Shown here: positions 311 through 18,090 of the stretch, in pieces
Numbering within the stretch: the stretch's first letter is position 1
Layout: each line of letters starts with the position of its first letter
IMG/VR virus record: IMGVR_UViG_2537562190_000023
DNA from: a virus
Taxonomy: Duplodnaviria > Heunggongvirae > Uroviricota > Caudoviricetes
Direction: 5' to 3' (one strand)
Length of the DNA: 20,641 nucleotides
Made by a program: the position numbers and the translations under genes
Notes under the pieces: model-generated
Database searches by the model: none
What the model was told of the DNA's origin: nothing
Seen by the model: the letters and a program-made list of their open reading frames with translations, nothing else

Positions 311-526
311 TTACTCTCCCCGCGCCGCCTTACGACGGTCCTCTCTGATTTTGAAATACAGGTTAGTCAGATATGTCAGCAGCCCAAACAGCAGACTCCC
401 CAGCACGCCTATTGCCGCCCACTGAGACGGAGAGACTTTGTCCAGCAGCTGCAGGAACCAGTAGCCCGTTCCCACCGCTGACGTGGTGTATGACACACCT
501 GTTGTGATTTTTTCCATCTGGTACAT
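311..526 (-). CDS. Phage holin, lambdoid S / EssQ-like, 71 aa
   Basis: 71 aa with two hydrophobic segments ([30 protein letters not shown]) and a charged C-terminal tail [13 protein letters not shown], the usual holin layout. Sequence matches my recollection of Stx-phage/Qin-type holins. Sits at the head of the lysis cassette, downstream of Q and nanS-p. Confidence 0.75.
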
Positions 527-601: not shown

Positions 602-871
602 TTACATCATCATTTCGCCGTCAGGCTGAGGCTCACTGCTACCGTCAGGCTGAGACACGACGCCATCTGAAACAGCACTGTCACCCGCGCCGTCTTCAGG
701 CTCAGGAGCAGCCGGTCCCCCCAGCAGCTCATCCAGAATGGCATCCACTTCAGCATCAAGACGCGCCTCAAGATTCTGGCGGAGTTGCTGTTTCAGTGCG
801 CTTCTGACTTCTTCAGAGCGCAGGACGTCCTTCACTGCTTCAGCAGTGACCAGAGATTTTATTTCTGACAT
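602..871 (-). CDS. Small acidic protein (about 89 aa) with a Pro/Asp/Gly/Ser-rich C-terminal tail; function unknown
   Basis: ATG at 871 gives MSEIKSLVTAEAVKDVLRSEEVRSALKQQLRQNLEARLDAEVDAILDELL followed by a low-complexity acidic tail. In-frame alternative starts exist at 982 (ATG) and 1027 (GTG), both of which would overlap the upstream gene. SD is weak. Confidence 0.4.
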   Translation of the reverse strand: MSEIKSLVTAEAVKDVLRSEEVRSALKQQLRQNLEARLDAEVDAILDELLGGPAAPEPEDGAGDSAVSDGVVSQPDGSSEPQPDGEMMM

Positions 872-908
872 GGGATTTTCTCGTTGAAAGGTGTTGTTAA
901 GAAAGTTG

Positions 909-1091
909 CTACGAAATGAGAGGCTCTTCGGGTTTTGTTCCGGCTGACTGGCTGGCGCTGATTTTTTCCGCCGCCGCGGCATCAATCTTTTTGCGTATAT
1001 AGTTCCGGATAACCTTATACCCGCCACTTACCAGATATAACGTGCACACCACCGTGCAGAAATACAATAAAATAAGCTGTACAAATCTCAT
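909..1091 (-). CDS. Small membrane protein (59 aa), function unknown
   Basis: ATG at 1091 preceded by a strong SD (GGGAGGG, 4 nt spacer). N-terminal hydrophobic segment FVQLILLYFCTVVCTLYLV followed by a basic, hydrophilic tail. Confidence 0.5.
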   Translation of the reverse strand: MRFVQLILLYFCTVVCTLYLVSGGYKVIRNYIRKKIDAAAAEKISASQSAGTKPEEPLIS

Positions 1092-1238
1092 TATCCCTCC
1101 CGGTTATTGATATGGTGTTGACATCGTTAATACCTGTTGGTTAAAAAAGTGTCCTGCATGTTTTGCTTTGGATATAACGACATTTGCCGCCGGTTCTGGC
1201 TCCTTGTTTTCCCTGCCCCGGCGGCCTTTTTTTCCTGC

Positions 1239-3291: not shown

Positions 3292-3653
3292 AAATAAAGG
3301 GATAACGATGATAGTTTGAGAAAAACAGAAATAACACTTTTGTGGCAAAGCATGGTGCCGGGTGCCTCCCGGTGAATTCAGTACCAGCACCTGAATCCGC
3401 GATTATCCCATATACCTGGTTGCTGATTGCCCCTCCGCACAGGGGGATTCACCATGCAGTAGTATTTTTAATAAACAGTAAACAAAAAAATCAAGCATTA
3501 TGCAGGCTGTTTCTTTTTATCACCGGCCACAGCAATACCACAATGCCGCAGACCAGCCCCCATCCGCCAGCACCGACATGATTCTGCTGGTGAAATCCAC
3601 CATCACCACCAGAAACAGCAGGAGTGCAGCCACAGCCAGGCGCAGTTTTACCG

Positions 3654-4253: not shown

Positions 4254-5075
4254 CTATCTGGTCACCTTTTTCAGTTGTTGTTCTGCCCATGCTTCTTCAA
4301 TATCAAACTGCACCACCAGCGTATCGTAAAAACGTTTAACTGTTTTTTTCCATGTATCAAGAGATATGGCATCGGTTACATTACATATGGCATTAAATGC
4401 CTCCGTTGAAGGTAATCTTTCATAGCCACGACCACCACAACGCTGGCAGTCTCTGATAACAGGCATACCACGTTTTACCGACTCTTCACGATGAATGGCA
4501 ACACCGCGCCCACGACAATCTTTACAGGCGGTGGAAACCTCCCCCTTCCCTCCACACTCCGGACAGGCAACTTTTACCACCTCCCTGACTTTTTTCCATT
4601 CCTCCCAGTAAGACGGATACACGCCTTTTGTGCACTTTGCCCACACTGGCGGCTTACCATCCGGATACTGGATCTTGTTTGTAAAAACCTCGCTTTCAAT
4701 AAATTTTTTTCCGTGACAACAGGGGCACTGTTTTTTGCTCGCCGCGCTACGGGCATAATCTTCAAACGCATACGAAGCCATAATACGCATCACTGCCGGT
4801 TTTATTTCTGCCGGGAGTTTTCTTAACGCCGCCACGCGATCACACCGACTGAGTGCATATTCTGTCAGCAATTCTGTTGCCCGCTCTCTGTCATTCATAC
4901 TAATGCCCATTTTCCCAAGGAACGCAGAAAACCCCATCTCAGCCCAATTCTGTGTCATGCCCTGCGCGGCCATCACATCAGTGATACTCAGCGTATCTTT
5001 CGACGTTGAGGCCGATGCATCAGTCAGGCCGGGGGATTTTGGGGAGTAGTATTTCGGTAAATCTTCCAGTTTCAT
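4254..5075 (-). CDS. Late-gene antitermination protein Q-like (large, zinc-finger-containing type), 273 aa
   Basis: ATG at 5075 overlaps the rusA stop (ATGA). Contains CxxC clusters (CPCCHGKK, CPECGGKG, CKDCRGRG, CQRCGGRG). Position directly after rusA and directly before a promoter/terminator pair and the lysis region matches Q of lambdoid phages (QuuQ / phage-82-like size class). The Q call rests mainly on position. Confidence 0.55.
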   Translation of the reverse strand: MKLEDLPKYYSPKSPGLTDASASTSKDTLSITDVMAAQGMTQNWAEMGFSAFLGKMGISMNDRERATELLTEYALSRCDRVAALRKLPAEIKPAVMRIMASYAFEDYARSAASKKQCPCCHGKKFIESEVFTNKIQYPDGKPPVWAKCTKGVYPSYWEEWKKVREVVKVACPECGGKGEVSTACKDCRGRGVAIHREESVKRGMPVIRDCQRCGGRGYERLPSTEAFNAICNVTDAISLDTWKKTVKRFYDTLVVQFDIEEAWAEQQLKKVTR

Positions 5076-5446
5076 TTTTTGACCTGCCCTTCAAGCATTA
5101 TGGGGTAAATCTTCACCCCCAGACGTCCACCAGATACTGGCTGAGCACGAACGATATTGATTTCATCAAACTGCTCATCGTCCATTAGCAACCCCGCATG
5201 CGTCAGCGCATCCAGCGGCGCTTTCAGAATATTGTCCAGGTCACGGCGGCGCTTATCCGGTGGCTCGGCAATAATCTTTATCGCCAGCCTTCCGGACAGG
5301 CTTAATTTCAGCCGCTGCTGGCGAACAATAAGCGCCACAGCCCGGCGATAACGCTCACCGGCTTTTGATACAAAATATGTGCTGCCACGACGTCGCCAGT
5401 AGGTGTTCACCGTCGGCAGGTAAAGCAAAACAAACTCTATACGCAT
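5072..5446 (-). CDS. rusA: Holliday-junction resolvase RusA
   Basis: 124 aa. Motifs RRRDLDN, LDALT.AG and GGRL, and overall similarity to E. coli RusA (YbcP) as recalled. Start ATG overlaps the upstream stop (TGATG). Confidence 0.8.
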   Translation of the reverse strand: MRIEFVLLYLPTVNTYWRRRGSTYFVSKAGERYRRAVALIVRQQRLKLSLSGRLAIKIIAEPPDKRRRDLDNILKAPLDALTHAGLLMDDEQFDEINIVRAQPVSGGRLGVKIYPIMLEGQVKK

Positions 5447-6507
5447 CAGTAACCTCTTTTACCCGAGCACGCCGGTTGCAAAGGCGTGATCAAGAAAACG
5501 AAAATTAAATCAACCTGGGAACCATGCTTTTCTTCGAACGCCAGCGGATCCGCATGAAGCTCGTTGTGATGCTCCCGACACAGCGGTAGCGTGAAAATAT
5601 CGTGGGATTTTGTTCCCATTCCGCCCTGACCATGACCAATCAGATGATGAGGATCGTCCGCTGGCTTACCACAACACGCACACGGCTGTGTCTTTACCCA
5701 GCGTGTGTATTTCTCATTTACCCAGCGGCGACGTTTAGGTCGTTTCATGAAGGATTCCGGAGACTCCGGATCAACGGCAATGCTGACCACCGTCTTTTCC
5801 TGTGGTGGGTTCTGTTGCTGGTGGGTGTGAGGCGGTAGCGCAATATTTTTTGTGCGCTGCTTCAGTATGCTGGTGGCGGTCTGCTCTCCCGGTACGATGT
5901 CGCTTTCGCGGTACAAGGAGCGGATTTTTTCCACACGTAACCCCAGAGAACGACGTAATACGGCCTCCGGTAGCGCGTCCGCCACCTGATTGCAGACCGC
6001 CCACCAGGATAATTCAGCCAGAGATAATTCACGCTCCTGCGTACCGCTTATTGCGTGACCGATGACGTCAATCATCCATGCTGACAGGTTTTGATGAGCA
6101 AGTTGCTCGAGTGATTCGGATGTCTGGTCCCGTAGCTGGTTGTCGCAGTGCCAGCACAACACCATTGCGCCGGTACCATAACGGTGAATGACAGTTTCGC
6201 TGTGGTGATAATCGCCGTGTGGCCACTGGCAGGATTTAATATGGCGCAACAGCCAGTCAGACAATGCACCAGCACCACCAGCAGCACGAATCACTCGTTC
6301 GTCGCTGAAAAATGGCAGCAATGTTTTGTCTTCCACCAGCGGCTGGCGAACGGCAGGAACGACCCCGGACGGCAGATTACGCATGCTTTTCGGTTCCGGC
6401 TCCACCAGTACCCGGGTATTGTGAAATACCTGCATGGATTCACGACCTGGCTTAAGGACCACCAGCCCGAGTTCCGGTACCAGAACAGGTCGAAGTAATA
6501 CCCGCAC
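5446..6507 (-). CDS. DUF968-type prophage protein (YdfU-like) with a C-terminal HNH-like Cys/His motif
   Basis: 353 aa. C-terminal region KRPKRRRWVNEKYTRWVKTQPCACCGKPADDPHHLIGHGQGGMGTKSHDIFTLPLCREHHNELH matches the DUF968/HNH-like pattern. Start lies 1 bp after the upstream stop. Confidence 0.6.
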   Translation of the reverse strand: MRVLLRPVLVPELGLVVLKPGRESMQVFHNTRVLVEPEPKSMRNLPSGVVPAVRQPLVEDKTLLPFFSDERVIRAAGGAGALSDWLLRHIKSCQWPHGDYHHSETVIHRYGTGAMVLCWHCDNQLRDQTSESLEQLAHQNLSAWMIDVIGHAISGTQERELSLAELSWWAVCNQVADALPEAVLRRSLGLRVEKIRSLYRESDIVPGEQTATSILKQRTKNIALPPHTHQQQNPPQEKTVVSIAVDPESPESFMKRPKRRRWVNEKYTRWVKTQPCACCGKPADDPHHLIGHGQGGMGTKSHDIFTLPLCREHHNELHADPLAFEEKHGSQVDLIFVFLITPLQPACSGKRGY

Positions 6508-7334: not shown

Positions 7335-7490
7335 TTACTCCTCAGGTTCGTAAGCTGTGAAGACAGCGACCTCCGTCTGGCCGGTTCGGATTCGTACCTC
7401 GCAGAGGTCTTTCCTCGTTACCAGTGCCGTCACTATGACGGTTAAACAGATGACGATCAGGGCGATTAACATCGCCTTTTGCTGCTTCAT
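7335..7490 (-). CDS. hok: Hok/Gef-family type I toxin, 51 aa; an in-frame upstream extension to 7547 forms a mok-like leader ORF
   Basis: MKQQKAMLIALIVICLTVIVTALVTRKDLCEVRIRTGQTEVAVFTAYEPEE is a canonical Hok/RelF-type sequence (single TM helix, conserved Cys, acidic C-terminus). The 70-codon ORF 7335-7547 starts at ATG 7547. Confidence 0.85.
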   Translation of the reverse strand: MKQQKAMLIALIVICLTVIVTALVTRKDLCEVRIRTGQTEVAVFTAYEPEE

Positions 7491-7534
7491 AGCCTGCTTC
7501 TCCTTGACCTTTCGGTCCGTAAGAGGCAATCTAT

Positions 7535-7590
7535 ATGTGACGAGCATATAGGGGCCTCACTTCGATTTATAGTCGGGTGGGGCTTTTATC
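7535..7590 (+). ncRNA. Predicted Sok-like antisense RNA overlapping the mok translation-initiation region
   Basis: Plus-strand TTGACC at 7504-7509 could serve as a -35. A possible terminator hairpin (CCUCAC/GUGGGG with one G-U pair, 7556-7582) is followed by CUUUUAUC. The region is antisense to the mok start at 7547. Boundaries are approximate. Confidence 0.3.
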
Positions 7591-7792
7591 TATCTGCCGT
7601 TGGTGTTCATGCCCGAGGCAGATAGCCTCAAGCACCCGCAGCAATTCTACTTAACTCTGCCGTTACAGCAAGCCGTTTTCGTCCGATATGGGAATTCCCA
7701 TATCGGAATGAATTCAGTTCACCTGGCGAGGCTTAGCGTACAATTTTTTCCGTTTTGTGAGCTGCCCCTACATGCCGCTGGCGCGGCATCCG

Positions 7793-14324: not shown

Positions 14325-14806
14325 AATAACAGGAACCACCTCGCCTGACGTGGTTAAAAGCAGGCACACAACGCGAAAGCGTACGGCGAGGTAGCTGGTT
14401 CATAGATAGCCTGTCGTTAAATTTTCGTCGACCGTGCGCTTCCGGTTGTGGCAGTCCGCGAAATGGCGCGGCGGTAAGTATGGCTGGGGTTTCCTCCATT
14501 GCTCCAGAAAATGCACCGGGTTGTCAGGTTGACCATACGCTTAAGTGACAACCCCGCTACAACGCCCTCTGTTATCAATTTTCTGGTGACATTTGGCGGT
14601 ATCAGTTTTACTCCGTGACTGCTCTGCCGCCCTTTTTAAAGTGAATTTTGTGATGCGGTGAATGCGGCTAAGCGCACGCGGAACAGTTAAAACCAAAAAC
14701 AGTGTTATGGGTGGATTCTCTGTATCCGGCGTTAATTGTTAACTGGTTAACGTCACCTGGAGGCACCAGGCACTGCATCACAAAATTCATTGTTGAGGAC
14801 GCGATA

Positions 14807-16876: not shown

Positions 16877-17764
16877 TCAGGCTGCCAGATCATCGTTTCC
16901 GATGGAAGCATAATAAGCTTTTTCTGCTTCTGCCGGGGGAGTATGGCCCAGCCTTTCCAGCAATCGTCGATTGTTATACCAGTCCACCCACGTGAGTGTG
17001 GCCAGTTCCACTTCTGCACGGTTTTTCCAGCTCTTACGGTGTATTACCTCCGCTTTGTAAAGACCATTGATGCTCTCCGCCATCGCGTTGTCATACGAGT
17101 CGCCAGTACTCCCTGTTGATGCCAGTAATCCGGCTTCCTTAAGCCGCTGCGTGTAGGCCAGCGATACATACTGAGAACCTTTATCACTGTGATGGATTGT
17201 GCCGGACGGCCGACGGGCCCACAACGCCTGCTCCAGTGCATCCAGCACGAATGTTGTTTCCATGGATGATGAGACCTGCCATCCCACGATGTATCCGGCG
17301 AACACATCAATGATGAACGCCACATAAACGAAGCCCTGCCATGTGCTTACCCAGGTAAAATCAGCCACCCACAACTGGTCTGGACGTTCTGCCACGAACT
17401 GACGGTTTACGCGGTCGCATGCGGCAACGGCTTTCCGGCTGACGGTAGTGCGGACCTTTTTACCCCGGAGAACACCGGCAAGTCCCATAACCGCCATGAG
17501 ACGTGCCACAGTGCATCTGGCCACTCTGATACCTTCCCGTAACAACTGACGCCAGACTTTACGCACACCGTATACCTTGTGATTTTCATCGTATACGCGC
17601 TGTATCTCTTTCTTCAGCCAGTCATCGCGCTGCGCACGGGCACTGCGTTTATCCGGATAATGTCGCTGTTGCTGACAGTGGTAATACGTTGACGGGGCAA
17701 TATGCAGTTCGCTGCATACCGGTCCGACCCCGTACTGCTCACGCAGCTTATCCAGCAGTGGCAT
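16877..17764 (-). CDS. IS629 transposase OrfB (DDE catalytic domain)
   Basis: 295 aa beginning [29 protein letters not shown] and ending ASIGNDDLAA, matching IS629 OrfB as recalled. ATG overlaps the orfA stop (TAATG). Confidence 0.9.
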   Translation of the reverse strand: MPLLDKLREQYGVGPVCSELHIAPSTYYHCQQQRHYPDKRSARAQRDDWLKKEIQRVYDENHKVYGVRKVWRQLLREGIRVARCTVARLMAVMGLAGVLRGKKVRTTVSRKAVAACDRVNRQFVAERPDQLWVADFTWVSTWQGFVYVAFIIDVFAGYIVGWQVSSSMETTFVLDALEQALWARRPSGTIHHSDKGSQYVSLAYTQRLKEAGLLASTGSTGDSYDNAMAESINGLYKAEVIHRKSWKNRAEVELATLTWVDWYNNRRLLERLGHTPPAEAEKAYYASIGNDDLAA

Positions 17765-18090
17765 TATTTTTTCCAGAGGCGGTCGAACTCCGCCTTCGCA
17801 AAATAAGCGGAAGCCTGGCGAAGGATATCGTTACTGCGGCGCAGTTCACGATTTTCACGTTCCAGCTCTTTCAGACGCTGACGTTCAGCGGTGGTGAGTC
17901 CACCATCACCACTCCCGGTATCCCGCTCATGCTGGCGAACCCAGACACGCAGAGTCTCCGGCGTACAGCCAATCTTTGGGGCAATGGAACAAATTGCCGC
18001 CCACTGTGAGTCATATTCATCCTGACTTTCCAGAACCATACGAATCGCCCGCTGACGGACTTCGGGGGAAAAACGAGTATTTTTAGTCAT
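17764..18090 (-). CDS. IS629 transposase OrfA (HTH / leucine-zipper part)
   Basis: 108 aa [59 protein letters not shown]..., matching IS629 OrfA as recalled. An A6 run sits at the orfA/orfB junction, where IS3-family -1 frameshifting occurs. Confidence 0.9.

Follow-up and report, generated by a model that had tools for sequence, protein, structure and literature searches.

What is the function of the two small genes lying between a nanS-p-type esterase gene and the holin gene in the late regions of lambdoid coliphages, and do they belong to the lysis machinery? Most Stx phages carry this pair within the short interval, a few kilobases long, from the Shiga toxin and esterase genes to the lysis genes, and this place, together with the ubiquity of the pair in STEC prophages, gives the question a modest interest. 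If lysis is tuned by the pair, the amount and timing of toxin and phage release would be influenced; if the pair serves the esterase, it would bear on the use of mucus sialic acids by STEC. As a sequence finding the locus is ordinary, and the genes themselves are no surprise to a specialist: both families, DUF1378 and DUF826, are already catalogued in Pfam, PHROGs and RefSeq and hence are known as features.

The one relevant paper found to name DUF1378 and DUF826 records their presence between nanS-p and S and nothing further, and a literature search by the locus tags ECs1208, ECs1209, L0106, L0107, and Z1467 has given nothing relevant; a comparative study of Stx phages marks the region as uncharacterised. 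New here are the coupling of DUF1378 to Rz, the esterase–DUF1378–DUF826 block in Mu-like prophages, and a releasin-like charge complementarity. The comparative context turns hypothetical proteins into three concrete, cheaply testable hypotheses.

Locus Layout and Distribution

The window, that is, the whole analyzed stretch of 20,641 nt (IMG/VR record IMGVR_UViG_2537562190_000023), comes from a lambdoid prophage and shows its late region in reverse (Table 1). The two small minus-strand ORFs that a preliminary description had placed between nanS-p and the holin are both present there, and their neighbors have been named correctly, with a SASA-family esterase upstream and a P21-type class II holin downstream (Pfam, RefSeq). 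Both genes are on the late-gene strand, inside the Q-dependent late block and directly before the pinholin, and no sigma-70-like promoter has been found on this strand. The pinholin begins with a dual start, Met1/Met4 (MYQM), and its C-terminal tail is basic.

Table 1. Features of the late region in the window (coordinates in nt from the first base of the window).
Feature	Coordinates	Strand	Basis
Q antiterminator gene	4254–5075	minus	
NanS-p-type sialate O-acetylesterase gene, 645 aa	1239–3176	minus	Pfam DUF1737, SASA, DUF6645; RefSeq "SASA family carbohydrate esterase"
Spacer between the esterase and DUF1378 genes, 147 nt	1092–1238		
Shine-Dalgarno sequence GGGAGGG of the DUF1378 gene	1095–1101	minus	read from sequence
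DUF1378 family gene, 60 aa	909–1091	minus	ORF, Pfam PF07125, PHROG 494, RefSeq WP_001213059.1
Non-coding upstream extension of the DUF826 frame, GTG at 1027	872–1027	minus	frame-specific dN/dS
DUF826 gene, 89 aa	602–871	minus	ORF, Pfam PF05696, PHROG 311, RefSeq WP_001289716.1
Class II (P21 S-type) pinholin gene, 71 aa	311–526	minus	Pfam PF04971 (E 3.6e-33); RefSeq
YdfR-family gene, start portion	1–306	minus	

Among the matches listed, E. coli O103:H2 str. 12009 and 14 other genomes have bases 300–1300 of the window with 100% identity, and in the identical E. coli O103:H2 prophage both proteins already carry the names DUF1378 and DUF826 in RefSeq. The prophage copy in the window is degraded, with the YdfR gene truncated and an IS3 further on.

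Bases 300–1300 were used as a query that runs from the holin gene through the small genes into the 3' part of the esterase gene; of 5426 complete E. coli genomes, 2450 contain similar sequence, in a median of 2 places and a maximum of 15. A tblastn search of about 50,700 phage records has matched DUF1378 in 309 and DUF826 in 307; almost every one is an Stx or other lambdoid coliphage. Clustered at 50% identity, 1.84 billion representative proteins include 36 clusters of the DUF1378 family, every one from Enterobacterales-type phages or prophages, and a profile search for DUF826 has yielded members in Escherichia and Shigella phages and prophages only. The preliminary description had named lack of conservation in related late regions, together with no effect on lysis, as evidence against its suggestion of a lysis-timing or accessory role; both genes have proved to be conserved, though optional, in E. 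coli prophage late regions.

Two Genes Under Purifying Selection

The DUF1378 ORF starts with the ATG at 1091–1089 and has the sequence MRFVQLILLYFCTVVCTLYLVSGGYKVIRNYIRKKIDAAAAEKISASQSAGTKPEEPLIS. A transmembrane (TM) protein is predicted, as had been claimed, but its length is 60 codons rather than 59, the latter being the length of the Pfam model itself. The match to this model scores 135.7 bits (cut-off 25, E 5.8e-40), with residues 1–59 aligned to positions 1–59 of 59, and the match to PHROG 494 has E 1.7e-35. The very strong Shine-Dalgarno sequence ascribed to the gene, GGGAGGG four bases ahead of the ATG, exists in this allele but is not a feature of the family: comparison of alleles shows ...AACGGTAAGAAACT-ATG in its place in 933W-type alleles. 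The second product is an acidic protein of 89 aa with a disordered tail, which had been quoted exactly and ends in ...PDGEMMM. It matches the DUF826 model with 118.8 bits (cut-off 25, E 1.2e-34; residues 1–73 on positions 1–73 of 75) and PHROG 311 with E 2.8e-38.

Selection was measured on 45 distinct alleles from IMG/VR loci. In the annotated frame dN/dS of DUF1378 is 0.20, and that of DUF826 is 0.19 in the first 55 codons and 0.46 in the tail, the same DNA yielding 1.6–3.8 when read in other frames. DUF1378 and DUF826 are genuine genes under purifying selection, far beyond chance.

That the locus instead makes one product, either a 141-aa protein from an upstream GTG or a DUF1378–DUF826 frameshift fusion, is hardly credible, even though the 141-aa ORF (602–1027) is open and annotated in some genomes (P0121, phrog_8301), the DUF826 frame runs on upstream without a stop in many alleles, rare database entries combine the two Pfam domains (P0205, P0262, P0263), and an A-rich run, CGC-AAA-AAG, lies inside the overlap. 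The upstream part of the 141-aa form is the +1 frame of the DUF1378 3' end, and the overlap evolves as DUF1378 coding sequence only, with dN/dS of 0.2–0.35 compared to 1.7–2.1 in other frames (1.7–1.9 in the +1 frame). Hence the upstream extension does not evolve as coding, the 141-aa form is not a gene, and the true start of DUF826 is the ATG at 871. Moreover, upstream start codons vary between alleles, and a fusion needs a +1 shift in an overlap that has neither a stop codon nor a known +1 shift site. The double-domain or read-through proteins P0115 and P0205 look like products of single-base indels with scrambled linkers, and the PGAP annotation now has two genes. A separate candidate, a DUF826–DUF6645 fusion (loci L014, L017, L025, and L036), has been rejected as a rearranged out-of-frame remnant in degraded prophages.

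Predicted Structure of the Two Proteins

Hydropathy of DUF1378 indicates a single hydrophobic TM helix at residues ~3–24, with conserved small or polar positions (C/S12, T13, C/S16, S22-G23-G24-Y25). The helix is followed by an invariant S/A-G-G-Y and then by a basic helix (residues 25–45, net charge +4 in this protein); the segment past the TM helix is charged +2 to +5 in all alleles examined, and the C-terminal end is a short disordered tail. In the AF2 model residues 2–50 form one continuous helix with pLDDT ~70–86. Most alleles start with MTF and have no basic N-region; since, in addition, the hydrophobic stretch is over-long for a signal peptide and contains no lipobox, the positive-inside rule predicts that the N-terminus is outside and the C-terminus inside. 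DUF1378 is thus predicted to be a single-pass inner-membrane protein of N-out/C-in topology with 2–3 periplasmic residues, and neither a periplasmic domain nor a lipobox is seen in it. A conserved face on the TM helix has been considered and rejected, as conservation extends all round the helix.

DUF826 has no TM segment and no signal peptide, its net charge is about –13.5, and pI is 4.05. The conserved N-terminal ~51 residues form a helix at 10–17 and a long helix at 20–49, and the tail (52–86) is variable, disordered and rich in Pro, Glu, Asp, Ser, and Gly; correspondingly, AF2 pLDDT is 92–98 for residues 21–50 and below 50 for residues 57–82. The head is highly conserved among lambdoid alleles and recognisable to about 30% identity. 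The tails differ between alleles in length and sequence, giving total protein lengths of 81–164 aa, and are always acidic and rich in P, E, D, S, T, G, A, and Q; the head carries a charge of –1 to –5 and the tail one of –6 to –13. All classical DUF826 alleles, the Mu-like ones included, end in a hydrophobic tip (MMM, MML, TML, TMM, or AMM), which two long-tail variants do not have. An acidic disordered tail with a hydrophobic tip recalls protein-binding tails, such as the C-terminus of SSB, by resemblance only.

Genomic Arrangements

DUF1378 has been found in five arrangements, in lambdoid E. coli prophages, BUCT709-like phages, Rosenbergiella prophages, Mu-like E. coli prophages and a Cedecea prophage. 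The lambdoid order is esterase, a spacer of 131–151 nt, DUF1378, 25–40 nt, DUF826, ~79 nt, and the P21-type pinholin; it is fixed, with nearly constant spacing, in about 75 loci. The percent identities of the four genes are uncoupled, which means that they are shuffled by recombination. In a divergent lambdoid variant DUF826 is exchanged for a relative of 127–164 aa with a longer tail, and one lineage of this variant has a holin from a different family; DUF1378 and the DUF826-type protein are still adjacent in these divergent modules with another holin family.

BUCT709-like phages carry, one after another, the pinholin, the SAR endolysin, Rz with Rz1 inside it, and DUF1378, and they have neither DUF826 nor an esterase. 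Rosenbergiella prophages have two unrelated holins, a GH19 endolysin, Rz/Rz1 and DUF1378, followed by DUF2560, HNH and terminase genes; this DUF2560 protein has been rejected as a homologue of DUF826 (hhalign probability 0.1%). In both lineages DUF1378 closes the lysis cassette, and its ATG overlaps the Rz stop codon (ATGA or TAATG). Identity between the two lineages is 44% for Rz, 58% for Rz1 and 50% for DUF1378, whereas the holins and endolysins are unrelated, and the link between Rz and DUF1378 has therefore outlived a swap of the other cassette genes.

Mu-like E. coli prophages contain gin, the esterase gene, a spacer of the same type, DUF1378, DUF826 (37–43% identical to the lambdoid ones), a 66-aa ORF, com, and mom or a methylase gene. 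The arrangement is very common (the DUF826 allele P0285 is listed in 910 collection blocks), and the block lies about 25 kb from the prophages' own endolysin, spanin and gp25 homologues. Purifying selection is seen here too, with dN/dS of 0.28 for DUF826 and 16 synonymous and no non-synonymous differences for DUF1378. In the one Cedecea prophage, a lone DUF1378 gene is located between tail-fibre and Dam methylase genes.

The P21-type holin is present in 436 phage records, the esterase in 351, and the pair in about 308. The same holin type occurs without the pair in about 127 records, and about 42 of the 351 esterase-carrying records have no pair (e.g., Stx1_499 and YYZ-2008, Stx1 phages with a mere 447-nt non-coding gap from the esterase to the holin). 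K-12 Qin and mEp460 have the same type of lysis cassette and no pair. As the holin or the esterase is often found without it, the pair is accessory and dispensable.

Comparison With Known Systems

The earlier remark that neither protein resembles a canonical antiholin or spanin is borne out: Pfam, PHROGs and NCBIfam give no holin, antiholin, spanin or endolysin family match for either of them. No significant match to defence or exclusion families has been obtained with PADLOC, and no solved structure is similar to either protein by sequence or fold, the fold search being uninformative for DUF826, whose model is essentially one long helix. The proteins of the Mu lysis region (gp19, gp20, gp24, gp25, and gp26) show no similarity to either protein. 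The same is true of the releasin family DUF2730, with no Pfam match and no significant blastp or hmmsearch result against Mu gp25.

The closest functional precedent is Mu gp25, a protein of N-out/C-in topology that exposes four residues to the periplasm and has an anionic domain in the cytoplasm, and which releases SAR endolysins in a manner dependent on the basic cytoplasmic residues of the endolysin (PMC9239132). DUF1378 is likewise small, late and predicted to be N-out/C-in with at most 4 periplasmic residues; it has Gly-Gly close to where the TM helix reaches the cytoplasm, with basic residues next, and its gene lies within or close to lysis cassettes whose endolysin is of the SAR type. 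It adjoins the cassettes in the lambdoid, BUCT709-like and Rosenbergiella arrangements and is about 25 kb away in Mu-like prophages. Unlike in gp25, the anionic part here is a separate polypeptide, DUF826, and the own cytoplasmic part of DUF1378 is short and basic; besides, the phages considered here have a pinholin, absent from Mu. Replacement of gp25 by the pair in Mu-like prophages has been rejected, as a gp25 homologue is present alongside the pair.

T4 RI and RIII offer another parallel, a membrane protein and a small cytoplasmic protein encoded with the holin, here immediately upstream of it, that could modulate triggering. DUF826, which might act like RIII, is small, acidic and predicted to be cytoplasmic, and the pinholin tail is basic. 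However, there is no homology between the T4 proteins and the pair, and RI works via a periplasmic domain, while DUF1378 has 2–3 residues before the TM helix, the remaining 35 being predicted to be cytoplasmic. To our knowledge, no lysis-inhibition phenotype has been described for these phages. As for an antiholin of the S21-71 type, the pinholin here already encodes its own by the dual start.

With spanins DUF1378 shares small size, an N-terminal TM helix and, in some phages, translational coupling to Rz, but its predicted orientation is opposite, and it has neither a periplasmic coiled coil nor a lipobox. The Rz, Rz1 and LysC models do not match DUF1378, and related, more complete cassettes carry separate Rz/Rz1 genes.

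Possible Functions of the Pair

The data support a late-expressed, non-essential pair made up of an inner-membrane protein and a cytoplasmic one. Our preferred reading, possible rather than probable, is that these two proteins constitute a lysis modulator, an accessory of the late operon that would work on the cytoplasmic side of the inner membrane. DUF1378 would insert as a single-pass protein with its positively charged helix just inside the cytoplasm, and DUF826, with its conserved helical head and long acidic disordered tail, would stay cytoplasmic. DUF1378 might contact a TM helix of a lysis protein, be it that of the pinholin or of the spanin Rz or the SAR anchor of the endolysin, and DUF826 might bind basic segments, such as the juxtamembrane helix of DUF1378, the C-tail of the pinholin, or the N-terminus of the SAR endolysin. 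The pair would then shift the timing or sharpness of the membrane step of lysis, which in turn could affect the release time of the phage, the esterase and, in Stx phages, the toxin. In function it could be a counterpart, in two polypeptides, of gp25 or of the T4 RI/RIII pair; alternatively to the releasin-like action, it might act in the opposite direction, as an antiholin-like brake. Every one of these interactions, as well as any effect on lysis timing, is what we infer.

Basic charge is shared by the juxtamembrane helix of DUF1378, the C-tail of the pinholin (+3) and the N-terminus of the SAR endolysin (+2), and DUF826 is strongly acidic; this charge pattern is compatible with electrostatic contacts on the cytoplasmic side of the membrane. 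Two lineages in which DUF1378 is coupled to Rz, together with a third one in which the pair precedes the pinholin, point to the membrane step of lysis, and the Rz coupling gives some independent support for a lysis-linked accessory role.

Several observations speak against the lysis modulator. Neither sequence nor fold of the pair is similar to any lysis protein family, the P21-type holin cassette occurs without the pair, and timed lysis needs no more than S21 and R21. It is the esterase, not the holin, that the pair accompanies in E. coli, and the common three-gene block of Mu-like prophages lies far from their lysis genes, as does the lone DUF1378 of the Cedecea prophage sit among a tail-fibre and a methylase gene. 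The DUF1378 and DUF826 alleles recombine independently, and thus there is no sign of their co-evolution. As the pair tracks the esterase and occupies a general cargo slot, the well-known moron position between pR' and S, lying next to the holin is no specific evidence for lysis and is a weaker argument than the preliminary description assumed.

A more specific form of the lysis modulator, rather unlikely in our estimate, is a two-piece releasin- or antiholin-like regulator, in which DUF1378 would be a membrane tether and DUF826 a detachable acidic subunit acting on the basic cytoplasmic ends of the pinholin and the SAR endolysin, or on Rz; it would set the timing of lysis and, through it, when and how much Stx and NanS-p leave STEC prophages.

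The association with the esterase could have a functional meaning of its own. The three genes would then form one module, in which the pair might hold, chaperone, inhibit or localise the sialate O-acetylesterase, an enzyme that has no signal peptide, inside the producing cell until lysis; inhibitors and immunity proteins are commonly small, acidic and encoded just behind their enzyme. The order of esterase, a spacer of ~135–150 nt, DUF1378, ~37 nt, and DUF826 is fixed in the about 75 lambdoid loci, and the same block with the same spacer type recurs between gin and com/mom in Mu-like prophages, where selection is retained far from the lysis genes; the adjacency of the esterase and DUF1378 is also kept in the divergent lambdoid modules that have another holin family. 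On the other hand, DUF1378 exists without any esterase in BUCT709-like phages and in Rosenbergiella and Cedecea prophages, the about 42 of 351 esterase-carrying records without the pair show that the enzyme also occurs alone, and transfer of the block in one event followed by hitch-hiking would explain the order with no shared function. We regard service to the esterase as an improbable explanation.

Equally doubtful is that the pair is independent moron cargo, for instance, a block to superinfection or DNA entry, a modifier of the host membrane, or, for DUF826, an acidic mimic that titrates a host protein. In other lambdoid phages the pR'-to-S slot holds stx, esterase, cold-shock, porin or methylase genes (Tree et al., PMC4104026), the Cedecea and Mu-like copies are located in accessory regions beside DNA-modification genes, the pair is optional for phages, and strong acidity, the disordered tail and the hydrophobic tip make DUF826 similar to protein-binding tails. 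Still, PADLOC has yielded no match to a defence or exclusion family, no promoter of its own has been detected for the pair on the strand that encodes it, DUF1378 is a tiny family confined to phages, and the translational coupling to Rz in two lineages means that DUF1378 is not an autonomous unit there.

A Candidate Antisense RNA in the Spacer

The spacer between the esterase and DUF1378 genes may contain an element of its own. On the late-gene strand A7 stands before a conserved hairpin, GCCGCCGG...CCGGCGGC, which reads on the plus strand as an intrinsic terminator followed by T7, and a conserved TTGACA lies on the plus strand at 1121–1126. Small RNA genes at this position have been described by others. 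The spacer RNA has no Rfam match at either threshold, and blastn of the spacer against the phage collection, meant to relate it to PasA/PasC, gives no match for this allele. The folding z-score of the spacer is –3.4 on the plus strand, and across 40 spacer alleles, the Mu-like ones included, both the hairpin, with compensatory changes, and TGTCAA are kept. The hairpin and TTGACA suggest a small antisense RNA gene, separate from both proteins.

Putative antisense RNA between the esterase and DUF1378 genes

The spacer separating the esterase gene from the DUF1378 gene (1092-1238) probably contains a small antisense RNA gene on the + strand, at 1121-1232 of the window. On this strand the hairpin GCCGCCGG...CCGGCGGC is followed by a T7 run, and the folding z-score of the spacer is -3.4. 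Comparison of 40 spacer alleles, including those of Mu-like prophages, reveals compensatory changes in the hairpin and conservation of TGTCAA. Hfq-bound sRNAs (PasA/PasC, EcOnc anti-sRNAs) have been reported by others at this position; identity of the spacer RNA with these is not established, with zero Rfam matches and zero blastn matches in the phage collection.

Stx1 phages lacking the DUF1378–DUF826 pair have a gap of 447 nt between the esterase and holin genes. In Stx1_499, no ORF of at least 40 aa clear of the flanking genes was found in this gap, and in phage YYZ-2008 the gap harbors two elements consisting of an A-run and a hairpin, in the antisense orientation, and one hairpin with a T-run, in the sense orientation, immediately upstream of the holin gene. 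Therefore, the slot alternates between RNA elements only, and an RNA element accompanied by two small proteins.

Other RNA elements were identified in the window, mainly via Rfam. STnc100 and the strong intrinsic terminator directly after it occupy the site of a pR' leader/tR'-type element; PasD sRNAs have been linked to STnc100 in a 2026 preprint.

Positions of RNA elements, intergenic gaps and the mEp460 ORF
Feature	Sequence	Coordinates	Strand	Remarks
TTGACA	window	1121-1126	+	conserved
Terminator-like hairpin	window	3289-3271	-	strong intrinsic terminator, directly after STnc100
STnc100 sRNA	window	3317-3483	-	Rfam, 101.6 bits; between Q and esterase gene
sok antitoxin RNA (hok/sok module)	window	7488-7637	-	Rfam
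DicF sRNA	window	14581-14632	+	Rfam
ALIL frameshift pseudoknot, IS3-family transposase	window	17693-17809	-	Rfam
Esterase–holin gap, 447 nt	phage YYZ-2008 (L131)	23473-23919		
Esterase–holin gap, 447 nt	Stx1_499 (L120)	5352-5798		
mEp460_058, 50-aa ORF	phage mEp460 (L121)	4576-4728		overlaps Rz end

Variants and annotation of DUF826

Four IMG/VR loci (L014, L017, L025, L036) represent one recurring degraded variant, in which the esterase has an internal deletion and DUF826 is broken after residue 52, where recombination has brought in the 3' end of another, divergent esterase gene. As this 3' end is out of frame, a true DUF826–esterase fusion was rejected. The 141-aa "DUF826" of public databases (602-1027, - strand; e.g., P0121 from O157:H7 SS17) results from a wrong start, its residues 1-52 being the DUF1378 3' end read out of frame, and PHROG 8301 rests on such mis-started forms.

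DUF1378 and the lysis genes

In the examined stretch of "Stenotrophomonas phage vB_SmeS_BUCT709" (OM816835.1), which has a G+C content of 47.6%, the pinholin is P21-like and the SAR endolysin R21-like. Copies of this phage's DUF1378 with 94-98% identity are present in metagenome contigs (L096-L101) with the same lysis-cassette layout; one contig is 760 kb long, and at least one contig with this DUF1378 type is labeled as human gut. The Stenotrophomonas host label looks doubtful, and an enterobacterial host seems more likely.

In phage mEp460, mEp460_058 matches DUF1378 of BUCT709-like phages in its position and general build (an N-terminal hydrophobic helix, then "RQGG"), with no detectable sequence similarity to it, and may be either an analogue or a spurious ORF.

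The pinholin of the window (311-526, - strand) starts with MYQMEK, that is, it shows the Met1/Met4 dual start of P21 S (antiholin S71, holin S68), and hence the lysis cassette has its own built-in antiholin. A YdfR-family gene, truncated in this prophage, starts 4 nt from the pinholin stop and runs from 306 downwards.
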